From Escherichia coli (GTDB taxonomy: Bacteria; Pseudomonadota; Gammaproteobacteria; Enterobacterales; Enterobacteriaceae): a DNA stretch of 64,000 nt. The translations under genes and the position numbers were made by a program. The stretch lies in the NCBI RefSeq assembly GCF_003334785.1, contig NZ_QOWV01000003.1; one strand, written 5' to 3'. Below the pieces are notes generated by a model. It ran no database searches, was not told where the DNA came from, and saw only the letters and a list, made by a program, of their open reading frames with translations. Positions 26,281-31,108 of the stretch are shown here, one piece after another. Numbering within the stretch: position 1 is the first letter of the stretch; the number at the start of each line of letters is the position of its first letter.

Positions 26281-27618
26281 TTAATCTTTGCTTATTGGTG
26301 CATCTAAGGGATACGGGTTTTTATGTAGCCGGTTGTAATTCAGCGCATACATGGCGGTGATGACCATCAGGGTGACAAATGACCACATAACCTCTTTCGC
26401 TCCGGACCCCACCACGGCCCAGATGCAGTAGAGGAAGGCAATGGTAGTAACTGCCAGATATGCCGGGCGTGCTTTACCAAAGTGACCGTGTCCGAGCAGC
26501 AGTAACGCCGCACAGGTGTAAAGATATGGCACCAGTGTAAAGATGACCGAGACGGAAGAAACCAGACCGAACTCTTTGGTCGCGTTTGGTGAAATGCTGC
26601 TGAGCTGGAAGATGGTCATCAAAATACCGACGATAATCAGCCCCGCCACTGGCGTACCCGCTTTATTTACACGGGCAAAAATCGGTGGGAACAGTCCGTC
26701 ATCGGCAGCGGCTTTCGCCGTTTGACCCGCCAGCAACGTCCAGCCGCCCAGTGAACCTAAGCAACCCGCAGCTGCGCAGAAGGAAACAATGGCCCCGGCG
26801 GTGTCACCCAACGCCATCCGTGCGGCATCACCGAATGGCGAAGCAGAAACGCGCAGTGCGGCATTAGGGATCATCCCCATAATCGCGGTGGTAGAAAGTA
26901 CATAGCAAACGGCGGCAATCAATACCCCACCAATGGTGGCGATAGGGACATTGCGTTTCGGGTTTTTCACCACACCTGCGGCAACGGAGGCACTTTCCAC
27001 ACCGATGAACGACCACAGCGTAACGTTAAGGGTACTTTGAATTGCACCGAAGGTGCCCAGGCCGCTGACGTTCCATGCCGCCATATAGGTTTCACCACGG
27101 AACCAGAACCAGCCAAATACGGCAATCCCGACGATGGGGATCAGCGCCAGCACGGTGGCAACTGCCTGCACACGGGTGATCATTTTCGGACCGACAATGT
27201 TCAGCAGGACGAAGATCCACAGCACCACGACGCAGGTGATGGTTAATACCAATGGATCTTTCAGAATCGGGAAGAAGTAACTTAAATATCCTACGCCAAT
27301 GACCACCATGGCGATATTGCCGATCCAGCAGGCCAGCCAGTAGAGGACGTTGGTTTGATAACCGAGAAACGGGCCAAAGCAGCGGCGGGCGTAAGCGTAA
27401 GAACCACCAGGACTTGGGTCGAGGAACGACATTTTGGCGTATACCATCGAGAGCCCCAGTGCACCGATAATCGTCACCAACCATCCATAAATGGCAATCC
27501 CGCCAGTAGAGGCCAGGTTTGCAGGTAACAGAAAAACACCTGACCCCATAATATTCCCCGACACCATCAGGGTGACGGGGATTAAGCCCACTTTGTGAGC
27601 ATCAGCATCCGAAGACAT
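26281..27618 (-). CDS. adiC: Arginine:agmatine antiporter (APC family)
   Basis: 445-aa [32 protein letters not shown]...; recognised as AdiC. Confidence 0.95.
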
Positions 27619-27754
27619 AATTAAACTCCTGCGAAGGCGAGCTTCGTGACAATAAATTACGTCATATCATACGCCTGCATTCGATAGTTGAATTATTATC
27701 GACCGGGTTATCGCTGATGCCGTTATTAATATAGCTCTTCGTTAAGGTTAAAAA

Positions 27755-28516
27755 TCAGGCGACAGTGCGTTCTCTGTGCTGACTAACATAATGCAGCGGC
27801 GTCATACCGTAGAAGTCTTTAAAGACAGAAATAAAGTACGACGTACTGTTGTAGCCGCAGGACTGTGATACCTGAGAGATATTTTTACCGTCCATCATTA
27901 ATTCATTTACGGCATAACGCATGCGGCAGGTGGTGATTATTTGGCTATAACTGGTGTTTTCGCTTTTCAACTTTTTCTTTAACAGACTTGGGCTAAGACA
28001 TAAACAACTGGCTACCATACTAAGATTCCAGTCTTTGTGAATATCGCTTTCAATAATTTGATAAACGCTGTCACTTACACAATTACGTAACATATACATC
28101 ATTAATGAAACGAATTTTTTACTGTCGAGAAAACGGGATAGCACCGTGAATAATAATGCGCGTGTTCGTTCCTTTTCTGACTCAGTTTCTGCGGGCATCA
28201 TGCTGTGTTGCGCGGCAACGCGAAAGACGTCTGGCGTCAGGCATGGCAGGGTGAGTATGGGCGTAGCGCTACGTTGCCATACTGGTATTTGCGAGAGATC
28301 TTTATTCAGAAACCGGAGGTAATCTTTGATGATGTCGTGACTAATATGAGCAACCAAAGTGTTGTTAAGAGAGGAGACGTCGATAATATTATTTTCACAA
28401 TTTAATAACGCCATATGGTTAGCTTTAAGGCTAATAGGTTCTTTCCCATTCACCCTTATCCAGACATCTTTTTCAGTCAATAAAACAATACAAGGTTGGT
28501 CGCTGCAAATCCTCAT
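27755..28516 (-). CDS. adiY: AraC-family transcriptional activator of the arginine decarboxylase system
   Basis: 253-aa ORF with C-terminal AraC HTH; recognised as AdiY. Confidence 0.92.
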   Translation of the reverse strand: MRICSDQPCIVLLTEKDVWIRVNGKEPISLKANHMALLNCENNIIDVSSLNNTLVAHISHDIIKDYLRFLNKDLSQIPVWQRSATPILTLPCLTPDVFRVAAQHSMMPAETESEKERTRALLFTVLSRFLDSKKFVSLMMYMLRNCVSDSVYQIIESDIHKDWNLSMVASCLCLSPSLLKKKLKSENTSYSQIITTCRMRYAVNELMMDGKNISQVSQSCGYNSTSYFISVFKDFYGMTPLHYVSQHRERTVA

Positions 28517-28695
28517 ACATGTACTCCTGAGTGCGAATAAAAGACCAGTTCTCGCTAAAGCAAAGCGATACCGGGAAATGGTTATATAATTGTATGATGA
28601 ATATAAACATGCATAAAAATAACGAGTTTTACTAATAGTACAAATTTTTATAGTAATTTCTCATGTACATATTTTTTTACAGGATAAATAACAGG

Positions 28696-28728
28696 CAAAA
28701 AAAAGCGCGGGGTGGGCCCGCGCAAAAA
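28696..28728 (-). terminator. Intrinsic terminator downstream of adiA
   Basis: aaaaaaaa gcgcggggtgggcccgcgc aaaaa: GC hairpin flanked by A/T runs on both sides (bidirectional). Confidence 0.7.
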
Positions 28729-28840
28729 GTATGACATTTTTGTTTGCAGCAATTTTTATGAAAACGTTGCCATACTCAAAAGGCCTAAGGCCAGGCGGCG
28801 TAATGTTATTTAAACAATTACGCCTTCAGCGGAATAGTGG

Positions 28841-31108
28841 TTACGCTTTCACGCACATAACGTGGTAAATACCGTCAATAATTTCAGTCCCTTCAGTTTC
28901 GTGTTCAAATCCAGGGAAATGGTGGTCCCAGGATTGCAGCGAGCGTAAATAACTTACTTGCGGACTGTTTTTATCGCCGAAGTTTTCACCAGACAGCAGC
29001 ATCGGGATTCCTGGCGGATACGGGATAACTGAGTTTGCCGCGATGCGTCCTGGCAGATTTTCAATGGATACCAGTTCGACATTGTTGTCGACAATCGCGT
29101 TGTACGCTTCACGCGGGGTGACTTCCGCCACCGGCAGGCCGGAATAGGCTTCGTTCAACCGTGCGCCAGGGTTGTTTTCTTTCAGCCAGGCAAACATGGT
29201 GTCACCCAGATCGTGAATCCCCATGTTCGCGTAAGTGTCAGGATATTGTTCAACAAGTTCCGGCATCACCTGCGCCAGCGGTGTGTTGGCGTCATAGTGG
29301 CGTTTGAAGGAGCAAAGGGTGTTAACCAGAGTTCCCCATTTCCCACGGGTTACGCCCATAGAGAACAGGAACATAATTTGGAAGTCAGTGGTGCGGGTAG
29401 GTACAATGCCGTGGCGACCAAGCCAGGCAGTGACCAGCGCCGCCGGAACACCGGTTTCTTCCAGTTCACCATCTTCACCCATTCCCGGAGCAAGGATGCT
29501 GACTTTAATCGGGTCGAGCATACTCCAGTTATCCGGAATATCTTTGAAGCCGTGCCAGCTTTCGCCCGGATGCATTACCCAGCAGTCCTGAACGGTGGTC
29601 AGCAGTTTGGTTGGTGCGTCAGCAAAGTCATAGGTTTTGCCGGTTTGTGGGTCGGTGACGACTTCTTTGTTCCACGGTTTGAAGAACCAGCTACCGTCAG
29701 CGGTGAACTCTTTATATAGCCGCGCCATCGCCTGACGGAAATCAACCGCTTCGTCAATCACTTCCTGTGTCAGTGACAGGCCGCTGTTGCCGTCCATCAT
29801 CGACACCGCCACGTCGTTGGATGCGCAGATGGCATACAGCGGGGAGGTGGTGGCATGCATCATGTAGGCCTGGTTGAAGCGGGAGAAGTTAATCGCCCCA
29901 CGACCTTCACGTACATGAATATAAGAAGCCTGTGACAGCGCATTCAGCAGTTTGTGGGTGGAGTGGGTGGCGAAAACGGTAGGACCGTTGTGATCGCCAG
30001 GTTCGCCGCGCATGGCATAGTGATCGGCATAGATCGGGTTGAAACGTGCATAGCCGTACCAGGCTTCGTCAAAGTGCAGACGATCGGAGGTTTTTTCCAG
30101 CAGATCCTGCGCTTCTTTAGCGTTATAACACACGCCGTCATAGGTGCAGTTGGTCACCACGCAGTAAGACGGTTTTTGCCCGGCTTTGTCTTTGGTCAGC
30201 GGGCTTTCACTGATTTTCTTCTGCAAGGTTTCAGGTTGCATTTCCTGCGGATAGATTGGCCCGATAATGCCGTAGCGGTTGCGGCTTGGCACCATATAGA
30301 CCGGTTTCGCGCCTGTCAGCATCAAACCTTGTTCGATGGATTTATGGCAGTTACGGTCAACGACCACGACATCGTTATCGGTCATGCAAGCCTGCATGAT
30401 GGTGCGGTTAGAGCCGGAAGTACCGACGACTACCGACCAGGAGCGATCGGCACCAAATACGCGTGCGGCATATTTTTCGCTTTCGCCAAATGCGCCAGTA
30501 TGGTCAAGCAAAGAACCGAGGGAAGTTCGTTCGATGCCCATGTCGGTGCGGAACAGATTTTCACCATAGTAGTCATGGTAGAAACGTCCGGCGGGTGTTT
30601 TGGTAAAACCAACGCCGCCCTGGTGGCCTGGCGCTGCCCAGGAATATTCATGGATGTCACTATATTTCATCAGCGCGCTGAACAGTGGCGGCAACAGCTG
30701 CTGGCGGTAGCGGGTCATCGCGGCAACGGCGCGTCCGGCGATAAAGTCGGCGGTATCTTCCAGAATCCAGGCGAATTCATCGACAAGCTCCAGCAGGTCG
30801 CGATCCATTGCGGCGAGGGCTTTTTCCCGATCGCCCAACAGGAAGACCGGCACGTTTTGTTGGCGCTCATGAAGCTTACCGATCAATTGTCTGACGTTTT
30901 GATGTTCGTCCGGATGTTCCATTTGATAGCTGAACATCAGGCAGTCAATGGCTTCGTTTGAAGAGAGAATGGCAAAACCATCATCAAAGGAGGTGGATTT
31001 AATCACGGTAACATTTTGCTGGCTTAAAGCATCTGCCAGACGCTCAACGGCGTTACCGACCCAGGTGTCTTGATGGAGAAACTCGCTTTCAACAATTAAT
31101 ACTTTCAT
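28841..31108 (-). CDS. adiA: Biodegradative (acid-inducible) arginine decarboxylase, PLP-dependent
   Basis: Track ORF 756 aa, probable start MKVLIVESEF (755 aa); Orn/Lys/Arg decarboxylase family (STHK lysine motif). Confidence 0.95.
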   Translation of the reverse strand: MKVLIVESEFLHQDTWVGNAVERLADALSQQNVTVIKSTSFDDGFAILSSNEAIDCLMFSYQMEHPDEHQNVRQLIGKLHERQQNVPVFLLGDREKALAAMDRDLLELVDEFAWILEDTADFIAGRAVAAMTRYRQQLLPPLFSALMKYSDIHEYSWAAPGHQGGVGFTKTPAGRFYHDYYGENLFRTDMGIERTSLGSLLDHTGAFGESEKYAARVFGADRSWSVVVGTSGSNRTIMQACMTDNDVVVVDRNCHKSIEQGLMLTGAKPVYMVPSRNRYGIIGPIYPQEMQPETLQKKISESPLTKDKAGQKPSYCVVTNCTYDGVCYNAKEAQDLLEKTSDRLHFDEAWYGYARFNPIYADHYAMRGEPGDHNGPTVFATHSTHKLLNALSQASYIHVREGRGAINFSRFNQAYMMHATTSPLYAICASNDVAVSMMDGNSGLSLTQEVIDEAVDFRQAMARLYKEFTADGSWFFKPWNKEVVTDPQTGKTYDFADAPTKLLTTVQDCWVMHPGESWHGFKDIPDNWSMLDPIKVSILAPGMGEDGELEETGVPAALVTAWLGRHGIVPTRTTDFQIMFLFSMGVTRGKWGTLVNTLCSFKRHYDANTPLAQVMPELVEQYPDTYANMGIHDLGDTMFAWLKENNPGARLNEAYSGLPVAEVTPREAYNAIVDNNVELVSIENLPGRIAANSVIPYPPGIPMLLSGENFGDKNSPQVSYLRSLQSWDHHFPGFEHETEGTEIIDGIYHVMCVKA

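Follow-up and report, generated by a model that had tools for sequence, protein, structure and literature searches.

The closest described system is arginine-dependent acid resistance (AR3) of Escherichia coli K-12, encoded by adiA, adiY and adiC (b4117-b4115). The lysine-dependent counterpart cadC-cadBA (AR4) pairs a same-fold PLP decarboxylase with an APC antiporter, whose exchange consumes protons in the same way. Another pair drawn from these two families, speF-potE (inducible ornithine decarboxylase and putrescine/ornithine antiporter), lies elsewhere in the genome; it is more distantly paralogous and forms an operon of two genes with no activator of its own next to it. Also relevant are the acid fitness island with GadX/GadW and hdeAB-hdeD-gadE and the Salmonella adiAZYC locus, which encodes AdiZ (STnc1180), a 3'UTR-derived, Hfq-dependent sRNA (PMC12746102).

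We compared these systems with positions 26281-31108 of an E. coli DNA stretch of 64,000 nucleotides, hereafter the window. This segment is almost certainly the chromosomal adiA-adiY-adiC locus of K-12, that is, AR3. Positions 26000-31500 showed 100% identity to E. coli K-12 MG1655, and among 5426 complete E. coli genomes, 5402 contained 80% or more of this interval. Sequence, gene order, annotation (adiA, adiY and adiC in RefSeq) and flanks (melR and eptA) were all the same as in K-12, with no difference detected. Because the locus is identical to the reference, the earlier note on this DNA read it correctly and nothing here is new; this is a textbook gene cluster, and no evidence contradicted its identification. 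The three genes that the note had named, all on one strand as it said, were recovered from ORFs and RefSeq annotation, adiA and adiC also from NCBIfam and PDB matches; a hairpin lies beyond adiC:

28841-31108, minus strand: adiA, biodegradative PLP-dependent arginine decarboxylase, 755 aa (RefSeq WP_001381593.1)
27755-28516, minus strand: adiY, soluble AraC/XylS-type activator and cytoplasmic pH sensor, 253 aa, GC 41.3% (RefSeq WP_001217060.1)
26281-27618, minus strand: adiC, arginine/agmatine antiporter of the APC superfamily, 445 aa
26227-26256, unstranded: palindromic hairpin with a perfect 13-bp stem, 25 nt past the adiC stop codon and ahead of eptA, terminator-like on both strands (terminator scan)

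AdiA scored 1706.8 bits (cut-off 1167) against the NCBIfam equivalog NF011603, the AdiA model of the fold-type I PLP, Orn/Lys/Arg decarboxylase class, covering residues 1-756 of the 756-position model, and matched PDB 2VYC over its full length (1784.6 bits). Its mechanical ORF begins one codon earlier, with a tandem in-frame ATG at 31111. AdiC gave a full-length match to NF007929 (892.2 bits, cut-off 574), matched PDB 3LRB and 5J4I over its full length and contains multiple hydrophobic segments, as for a polytopic membrane protein. The kinship with speF-potE was visible in scores of 414-437 bits for AdiA on ODC models and 341 bits for AdiC on the PotE model. AdiY matched no NCBIfam equivalog of its own: the GadX model came closest, at 154 bits where 500 are required, and the name AdiY therefore depends on the protein being identical to the one annotated in K-12. 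Pfam placed HTH_18 at residues 169-244 (E 1.5e-14) along with two HTH_AraC matches, giving the C-terminal double helix-turn-helix of the AraC family, and hydropathy revealed no membrane segment. The AdiY of the window carries both His34 and His60. Among 14 AdiY orthologues compared, His34 was conserved in 12, while His60 was confined to Escherichia and replaced by Arg or Lys elsewhere, a restriction likewise reported in PMC12826058.

In this system, AdiC brings arginine in and agmatine out, and arginine decarboxylation by AdiA uses up a cytoplasmic proton. The regulatory side, with pH sensing, tetramer binding, the binding of H-NS and control by SgrS, is taken from the literature: AdiY detects cytoplasmic acidification via protonated His34 and His60 (PMC12826058), H-NS targets the AT-rich adiY promoter region, and the sRNA SgrS represses adiY mRNA (as cited in PMC8989999). 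The adiA 3'UTR contributes a conserved Hfq-binding AdiZ module.

The earlier note had treated 28517-28840 and 31109-31306 as AT-rich regions separating the genes of the module. The former does lie between adiA and adiY, but the latter is the melR-adiA gap upstream of adiA and not internal to the module. Moreover, the first ~145 nt of the adiA-adiY interval are adiA 3'UTR with the AdiZ module, so this interval is more than a control region:

28697-28840, minus strand: adiA 3'UTR, structured, with three hairpins (the first at 28797-28824) and then the terminator
28697-28781, minus strand: segment homologous to AdiZ (STnc1180), from UUUUGAG to the end of the terminator U-run
28697-28723, minus strand: intrinsic terminator of adiA, GCGCGGG-CCCAC-CCCGCGC at 28723-28705, then T8
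28517-28696, minus strand: AT-rich adiY promoter region, with a candidate -10 TACAAT (28589-28594) in conserved ATTCATCATACAAT (alignment)

The predicted fold of the 3'UTR had an energy of -43.6 kcal/mol (z = -3.24 relative to shuffled sequences). The clear terminator that had been noted after adiA was borne out at 28705-28723 plus T8, with 7 G-C pairs in the terminator scan and a stem unchanged in 13 sequences from three genera (Escherichia, Citrobacter and Salmonella). Across 13 sequences from these genera, ATTGCTGCA and TGTCATAC were invariant or nearly so, as were the terminator and the U-rich stretch, and the consensus fold combined the terminator with a closing stem of 6 bp. The segment lies in the adiA 3'UTR and ends at the intrinsic terminator of adiA, with a U-rich stretch before it, the features of an Hfq module. 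By sequence, the Hfq-binding module known from the published Salmonella AdiZ is conserved in this 3'UTR, and E. coli may produce this sRNA as well. Likeness to Salmonella adiAZYC covers gene order, terminator, U-rich stretch, TGTCATAC, ATTGCTGCA and the closing stem AUGGCA/UGUCAU, whereas the 5' hairpin at 28797-28824 is additional in E. coli and the segment measures 85 nt in the window versus 94 nt in S. diarizonae. The ~8-U run of the RNase E processing site is not in E. coli, which reads CCUUUUGAG (U4) versus U7 in the Salmonella sequences; the S. Typhimurium site has eight U (PMC12746102). Likewise, the SgrS-like ptsG-pairing seed is not in E. coli, Escherichia having CATAAAAATT where Salmonella and Citrobacter read CTGAGTATT, and PMC12746102 describes this seed as unconserved in Escherichia. 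Rfam has no AdiZ model, and its scan of the locus gave nothing up to a gathering score; the literature searched held no expression data for AdiZ in E. coli.

Conserved elements were also located upstream of adiA and adiC:

31262-31301, minus strand: distal conserved block of the adiA control region, ATATCAgTATCAGCCaAAAAAATA..GTCGATAA, 40 bp; candidate AdiY operator
31217-31230, minus strand: candidate IHF-like element TAA-N4-TTGTTTA within the AT-rich spacer of the adiA promoter
31149-31177, minus strand: predicted sigma-70 core promoter of adiA, -35 TTTACA, 17-nt spacer, -10 GATACT (consensus scan)
27619-27754, minus strand: adiY-adiC intergenic region with the adiC promoter; conserved block 27709-27736, consensus TAATATCAGCATTAGCGATAA
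27693-27703, minus strand: 11-mer GTCGATAATAA in the adiY-adiC intergenic region
27666-27671, minus strand: candidate adiC -10 TATGAT in the adiY-adiC intergenic region

The distal block, far upstream of adiA, begins 5 nt past the melR stop codon and is kept across 25 species including the Kluyvera group. The 11-mer GTCGATAATAA has only two copies in the window (expected 0.03), one in this block and the other in the adiC promoter region, and we infer from this shared motif a putative AdiY operator. In the IHF-like element, TAA and TTGTTTA were constant and the 4-nt spacer variable in 17 Escherichia, Citrobacter and Salmonella sequences; the whole ~70-nt AT-rich spacer is missing from the Kluyvera group. 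The predicted adiA -35 and -10 hexamers fall inside the conserved blocks CTTTACA (31178-31172) and ATACTTGCC (31153-31145), respectively. Upstream of adiC, TATCAGC-N4-GCGATA occupied the same position in 17 Citrobacter and Salmonella loci. AdiY bound the adiC promoter fragment at pH 6.0 by surface plasmon resonance (SPR; PMC12826058), and binding to the adiC promoter was undetected by EMSA (PMC2984483).

The earlier note further described the module as paralogous in design to the cad genes in the same window:

47058-49205, minus strand: cadA, inducible lysine decarboxylase, adiA paralogue, with Lys367 in STHKL
49285-50619, minus strand: cadB, lysine/cadaverine antiporter, adiC paralogue
50984-52522, minus strand: cadC, ToxR-like membrane-integrated activator, GC 42.0%

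These identities were supported by 1628.4 bits for CadA on NF011929 (cut-off 1056), 920.4 bits for CadB on NF007754 (cut-off 585) and 752.6 bits for CadC on NF007540 (cut-off 400). Pairwise alignment gave 36% identity (E 2e-163) for AdiA/CadA, with the PLP-binding Lys386 of AdiA (STHKL, 383-387) aligned to Lys367 of CadA, and 38% identity (E 3e-100) for AdiC/CadB. A lack of similarity between the paired proteins, which the note had named as refuting its claim, is hence not the case. Its statement that the regulators are unrelated also stood. AdiY is soluble and AraC-type, whereas the ToxR-like CadC is a membrane protein with an N-terminal Trans_reg_C winged helix (24-100), one transmembrane segment (155-183) and a periplasmic CadC_C1 domain (191-324), and no similarity was found between the two (best E 0.11). 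CadC senses periplasmic pH and lysine at the membrane, in contrast to AdiY as a cytoplasmic sensor. Paralogy is, nonetheless, limited to the parts because gene order is permuted (adiA-adiY-adiC versus cadC-cadB-cadA). Transcript structure differs too: adiA has a terminator of its own and forms a monocistronic unit, with adiY and adiC coming after it; in AR4, by contrast, cadC stands ahead of a cadBA operon that begins with the antiporter. Shared by both are a low-GC regulator gene (cadC 42.0%, adiY 41.3%), an AT-rich promoter region (33% GC in cad) and H-NS repression. The quoted distance of about 18 kb is approximate, as 15,949 bp separate the adiA start from the cadA stop and the centres lie 21.1 kb apart.

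A local (regional) duplication giving rise to adi and cad would explain their ~16-21 kb spacing on one strand and agrees with both structural protein pairs being clear paralogues and both modules lying on the minus strand inside one 26-kb stretch. We nevertheless consider it very unlikely, since identities of just 36-38% point to an ancient divergence, the gene order is permuted and the regulators are unrelated. AdiC even scores higher on the histidine-histamine antiporter model (400 bits) than on the CadB model (372 bits). Another difference from adi, the position of cad beside tRNA-Phe pheU and an integrase pseudogene remnant, suggests separate placement. Within 8 kb, a distance that would miss E. 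coli cad too, none of 80 AdiA loci from other species had a Cad homologue. The two systems presumably lie far from each other in Salmonella LT2 (cad, STM2557-2559; adi, STM4294-4296).

Two further alternatives concern the intergenic regions. Their AT-richness, noted earlier and confirmed here, might be ordinary intergenic composition devoid of specific regulatory (H-NS) meaning. GC contents were 36.1% (28517-28840), 34.8% (31109-31306) and 38.2% (27619-27754) against a window mean of 51.1%, so that all three fell within the bottom 3% when compared with windows of equal size; of the 38 intergenic regions of the window (median 46.3%), they ranked a moderate sixth, eighth and ninth lowest, and unrelated promoters such as lysU|dtpC, yjdM|crfC and dcuA|aspA were more AT-rich. 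We judge this explanation improbable, given that in competitive gel shifts in vitro H-NS bound the adiY promoter fragment preferentially, as well as the cadC and cadBA promoters, and that adiY mRNA rose five-fold in an hns mutant (PMC2984483). H-NS binding at the adiA promoter was not found in the literature covered. The AT-rich DNA associated with H-NS silencing is present: GC is 35-38% between the genes and 41% within adiY, versus 51% in the window; low GC continued through the adiY coding sequence in 20 of 20 genomes, and IS1 and an IS4-family element were inserted in adi intergenic regions of natural isolates. The regions could alternatively be mere spacers in a single adiA-adiY-adiC operon driven from the adiA promoter. 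The shared strand, the short gaps and the prediction of no terminator between adiY and adiC are in keeping with this, as is the report that the adiA terminator 'attenuates' downstream transcription (PMC12746102), a wording that makes some read-through possible. We regard a single operon as the least probable of the alternatives, with hardly any likelihood: the terminator after adiA is strong and invariant, conserved blocks with -10-like hexamers precede both adiC and adiY, and separate adiA, adiY and adiC promoter fragments drive reporters, the adiC fragment being bound by AdiY and the 300-bp adiY fragment showing weak activity (PMC12826058).

The GC content of adiY lay 10-12 points under that of adiA and adiC in 20 genomes, and in Xenorhabdus adiY is absent and adiA and adiC abut; together, these observations suggest that adiY is an old insertion. 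The best family and structure match of AdiY is GadX, whose DNA-binding domain (3MKL) is its closest solved relative. In E. coli, acid fitness island-type genes are low in GC and controlled by H-NS (PMC2984483). In contrast to the GadX/GadW island, the targets of AdiY are adiA and adiC, which it activates, and its pH sensing relies on histidines of its own; the E. coli adi locus contains neither hde genes nor gadE. Kluyvera, Yokenella, Kosakonia and Enterobacter sp. Bisph1 have additional genes in the homologous adiA-adiY interval. Of these, a 176-aa GerE/LuxR-type regulator and hdeA were verified in both Kluyvera and Kosakonia, and Kluyvera was also confirmed to have hdeD.

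The adi locus serves the survival of E. coli in stomach acidity and has seen about 30 years of genetic, biochemical and structural characterisation. In a six-frame ORF list, three minus-strand ORFs of 445, 253 and 756 aa were found at 26281-27618, 27755-28516 and 28841-31111, exactly where the earlier note had placed adiC, adiY and adiA; at the start of adiA, two ATG codons lie in tandem, and the MG1655 annotation uses the second, at 31108. Megablast against 5,426 complete E. coli genomes showed 100% identity of region 26000-31500 to K-12 MG1655 and coverage of at least 80% of the region in 5,402 of the genomes. 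The MG1655 annotation of this region reads eptA, adiC, adiY, adiA and melR, and the whole window corresponds to the K-12 chromosome segment from alsC to yjeJ. As the sequence is the K-12 adi locus itself, the locus is already known. The features discussed below are as follows.

26281-27618, minus strand: adiC, arginine/agmatine antiporter
27619-27754: adiY-adiC intergenic region, GC 38.2%
27755-28516, minus strand: adiY, AraC-type activator
28517-28840: adiA-adiY intergenic region, GC 36.1%
28841-31108, minus strand: adiA, arginine decarboxylase
31109-31306: melR-adiA intergenic region, GC 34.8%
31177-31172 and 31154-31149, minus strand: predicted sigma-70-like adiA promoter, -35 TTTACA and -10 GATACT
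47058-49205, minus strand: cadA
49285-50619, minus strand: cadB
50984-52522, minus strand: cadC

Eight of the 5,426 genomes gave no match at all to 26000-31500, and of the 5,423 places that matched, three were on plasmids instead of chromosomes. Gene coordinates converted from the MG1655 record NZ_CP032667.1 were exact up to melB and offset by 1 bp from dtpC and cadA onward, indicating a single-base indel between the window and this record between melB and dtpC (within 35378-45541). In this K-12 background, phnE (13030-13817) is annotated as a frameshifted pseudogene.

NCBIfam equivalog scores exceeded the curated cut-offs for AdiA (1706.8 versus 1167 bits), AdiC (892.2 versus 574), CadA (1628.4 versus 1056), CadB (920.4 versus 585) and CadC (752.6 versus 400). 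AdiA and AdiC matched solved E. coli structures at full length (2VYC and 3LRB/5J4I, respectively), and the pyridoxal phosphate (PLP) lysine of AdiA, Lys386 in an STHKL motif, aligns with CadA Lys367. BLASTP revealed 36% identity between AdiA and CadA over 740 columns (E 2e-163) and 38% between AdiC and CadB over 447 columns (E 3e-100). The two paralogous acid-resistance modules had thus been recognized correctly from raw sequence without tools. The further description of the modules as paralogous in design applies to these structural proteins and does not extend to gene order, which is permuted: decarboxylase, regulator and antiporter in adi versus regulator, antiporter and decarboxylase in cad. 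As the earlier note had held, the regulators are unrelated, with a best BLASTP E value of only 0.11 between AdiY and CadC. AdiY is an AraC-type protein with a double helix-turn-helix and no hydrophobic segment, nearest to the GadX family model (154 bits, below the model cut-off) and to PDB 3MKL, while CadC has a winged helix of the OmpR/ToxR type at its N-terminus, a single transmembrane segment (155-183) and a periplasmic CadC_C1 domain. The distance of about 18 kb ascribed to the modules is an approximation, as 15,949 bp separate the adiA start from the cadA stop and the module centers lie 21.1 kb apart. Overall, the interpretation in that note is supported, with permuted gene order, separate transcripts, an AdiZ module in the adiA 3′ untranslated region (UTR) and moderate AT-richness as refinements; what novelty is left concerns a candidate operator and an IHF-like architecture, how adiY may have been inserted, and a putative E. 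coli variant of AdiZ.

The proximity of two such modules could be read as the product of a regional duplication, which we regard as very improbable because adi and cad are deeply divergent, differ in gene order and regulators, and because cad adjoins pheU and an integrase remnant. In detail, cadC lies directly downstream of the tRNA-Phe gene pheU (53139-53214, minus strand) and a frameshifted partial integrase pseudogene (~52781-52940) in region 52523-53320, and the DNA between cadC and the integrase remnant is very AT-rich (31.7% GC, 52522-52780). Together, these features suggest an old integration site, associated with the tRNA gene, at the border of the cad region. Between adi and cad, the type V toxin-antitoxin pair ghoS-ghoT (43171-43668) constitutes the lowest-GC coding DNA of the window (~34.5%).

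AT-rich flanks proposed for the adi module were borne out, with 34.8% and 36.1% GC for 31109-31306 and 28517-28840 compared to a window mean of 51.1%, and both fall within the bottom 3% of windows of the same size. The window has 38 annotated intergenic regions of 50 bp or more, with a median GC content of 46.3%; those of adi come sixth, eighth and ninth from the bottom and are AT-rich, yet not extreme. More striking than the intergenic AT-richness is the low GC content of both regulator genes: adiY has 41.3% versus 52.7% for adiA and 53.7% for adiC, and cadC has 42.0% versus 47.6% for cadA and 49.4% for cadB. H-NS prefers adiY, cadC and cadBA promoter fragments in vitro, and adiY and cadC are derepressed five-fold in an hns mutant (PMC2984483).

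To assess the arrangement across species, we used tblastn to survey 80 loci that encode AdiA, taken from a collection of genomes dereplicated by species. Escherichia, Citrobacter and Salmonella share the order melR-adiA-adiY-adiC-eptA, and Hafnia and two further Enterobacteriaceae feature adiA, an adiY-like gene (49-54% identity) and adiC. In Yokenella, Kluyvera, Kosakonia and Enterobacter sp. Bisph1 (collectively, the Kluyvera group), 1.5-2.3 kb separate adiA from adiY and adiC. The 17 Xenorhabdus loci lack adiY, with only 18-66 nt between adiA and adiC, and Vibrionaceae and Shewanella carry a different APC transporter (~35% identity) upstream of adiA. Brameyer et al. have called the arrangement ‘unusual’ and AdiY confined to Enterobacteriaceae (PMC8989999). 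From the Kluyvera group, which comprises loci L020, L021, L024, L048 and L076, we examined the extra DNA in one Kluyvera and one Kosakonia locus (L021, 10386-12096; L024, 5249-6440). Both encode a 176-aa GerE/LuxR-type regulator, assigned by Pfam on the Kluyvera copy, and hdeA; of these two, only Kluyvera additionally contains hdeD. This DNA amounts to a miniature acid-fitness island within the adi locus. In 20 of 20 genomes, the GC content of adiY lies 10-12 points below that of adiA and adiC, likewise at third codon positions. The most economical reading, which we favor by a modest degree, is that a GadX-like adiY and accompanying AT-rich DNA entered a pre-existing adiA-adiC pair; our confidence is no higher because adiY could alternatively have been lost in Xenorhabdus. 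Under the insertion reading, the incoming DNA may be akin to the GadX/hde genes of acid islands and have split an ancestral adiA-adiC operon.

Regarding transcription, the terminator noted after adiA is a canonical intrinsic one (GCGCGGG-CCCAC-CCCGCGC followed by T8, 28723-28705), located 118 nt past the adiA stop codon. In the adiY-adiC interval, no terminator-like site was predicted, and a perfect 13-bp palindromic hairpin follows adiC at 26227-26256. Promoter fragments of adiA, adiY and adiC are separately active; at pH 5.8-6.0, AdiY binds those of adiA and adiC with a DNA:protein stoichiometry of 1:4 but does not bind that of adiY (PMC12826058). An earlier electrophoretic mobility shift assay (EMSA) had not detected AdiY on the adiC promoter (PMC2984483), for which we suspect pH dependence as the explanation. 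AdiY pH sensing requires His34 and His60 (PMC12826058), both present in the AdiY of the window. Of 14 orthologues (loci within L005-L029), 12 retain His34, and His60 occurs only in Escherichia, with Arg or Lys in Citrobacter, Salmonella, Kluyvera, Hafnia and others; its absence in Salmonella and Citrobacter was already reported (PMC12826058). Two E. coli strains carry insertion sequences that could place adiY or adiC outside their normal control: IS1A between the adiA terminator and adiY in the natural isolate STEC276 (L084; ~28650 in the window) and the IS4-family ISVsa5 at the adiY-adiC intergenic region and adiC 5′ end in WP5-S17-ESBL-10 (L085; ~27620).

Phylogenetic footprinting upstream of adiA identified a distal 40-bp block (31301-31262, ATATCAgTATCAGCCaAAAAAATA..GTCGATAA) kept in 25 of 25 sequences, a TAA-N4-TTGTTTA element (31230-31217) with conserved consensus positions and variable N4, and conserved -35 (CTTTACA) and -10 (ATACTTGCC) blocks. 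The hexamers TTTACA and GATACT within this region fit sigma-70. A sigma-54 promoter, considered because of a conserved GG...TTGCC, was rejected on inspection by eye since GG and GC are spaced by 9 nt, and a sigma-54 promoter requires 10. By our comparison, the TAA-N4-TTGTTTA element resembles an IHF site, with one mismatch to the consensus; no usable literature on IHF at adiA came out of a search. A conserved element of the form TATCAGC...G(T)CGATAA is located ~120-160 bp ahead of the predicted start of adiA in E. coli, Citrobacter and Salmonella, and its AT-rich spacer of ~70-80 nt to the -35 box holds the IHF-like site. The Kluyvera group lacks the ~70-nt AT-rich spacer between GTCGATAA and the adiA -35 box, so that the distal block abuts the core promoter.

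Upstream of adiC, a conserved block TAATATCAGCATTAGCGATAA (K-12 27736-27709) is followed by a -10-like TATGAT (27671-27666), and the pattern TATCAGC-N4-GCGATA is found at the equivalent position in 17 loci from Citrobacter and Salmonella. The exact 11-mer GTCGATAATAA has two copies in 64 kb (31259-31269 and 27693-27703; 0.03 expected by chance, at least two matches in 0 of 100 shuffles). Each of the two promoter regions that depend on AdiY holds one copy, in both cases on the coding strand of adi. By rough estimate, the words TATCAGC and CGATAA are weak evidence when taken singly; the weight is carried by the exact 11-mer and cross-species conservation. On this basis, we put forward TATCAGC...G(T)CGATAA as a candidate operator for AdiY. 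Recent biochemical papers define none; in PMC12826058, the operator is undefined and the terms ‘binding site’ and ‘motif’ are absent.

The annotation of the adiA-adiY interval as ‘intergenic’ is updated here with the recently described AdiZ small RNA (sRNA) module. In Salmonella, RNase E releases the Hfq-dependent AdiZ (STnc1180) from the adiA 3′ UTR; AdiZ represses ptsG, pykF and dmsA, and its homologues include an Escherichia-Shigella cluster in which conservation of the Hfq module is nearly perfect (PMC12746102). Because Rfam has no AdiZ model, we judged membership by alignment to Salmonella and Citrobacter rather than by a covariance model, using the interval from 13 Escherichia, Citrobacter and Salmonella sequences. 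Its most conserved part is ATTGCTGCA...TGTCATAC-U-rich-GCGCGG..CCCGCGC-T7/8. The 149 nt from the adiA stop codon through the terminator form an unusually stable fold (-43.6 kcal/mol, z = -3.24). In the RNAalifold consensus, a stem of 6 bp (AUGGCA/UGUCAU) closes a long loop of unpaired sequence, and the terminator is recovered as well. Compensatory changes were found in 0 of 12 pairs in this alignment and the terminator is invariant, leaving conservation and energy as the basis of the structure.

The E. coli segment equivalent to AdiZ (28781-28697) spans 85 nt, compared to 94 nt between these landmarks in S. enterica subsp. diarizonae, the latter in agreement with the published ~95 nt. Compared to Salmonella, E. 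coli has an additional 5′ hairpin (28797-28824) and a shorter U-run at the processing site (U4 versus U7 in the aligned sequences and U8 in PMC12746102). It also carries CATAAAAATT where Salmonella and Citrobacter bear the SgrS-like seed CTGAGTATT, a difference likewise stated for Escherichia in PMC12746102. Lacking this ptsG seed, a putative E. coli AdiZ may regulate a different target set; a literature search on its expression in E. coli provided nothing usable. Taken as a set of linked, modest possibilities, an ancient adiY insertion, the proposed operator and an E. coli AdiZ with other targets have, in our estimate, somewhat less than an even chance.

Neither the Rfam search of the whole window at the gathering threshold nor that of 26100-31400 at permissive settings placed a curated RNA family within adi, where the sole hits were AgvB and ncS54, two sub-threshold matches to the terminator region that are attributable to chance. 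Elsewhere, 22634-22799 on the plus strand strongly matched the enterobacterial sRNA STnc630 (181.8 bits), overlapping the small ORF pmrR (22703-22792) and the basS/pmrB 3′ end. Four tandem copies of naRNA4 (nucleoid-associated noncoding RNA 4) with a 100-bp period occupy 16592-16968 on the minus strand in the 657-bp yjdN-yjdM intergenic region, and a fifth lies on the plus strand near phnD and phnE (14036-14116); we take these copies to be REP/BIME-type repeats.
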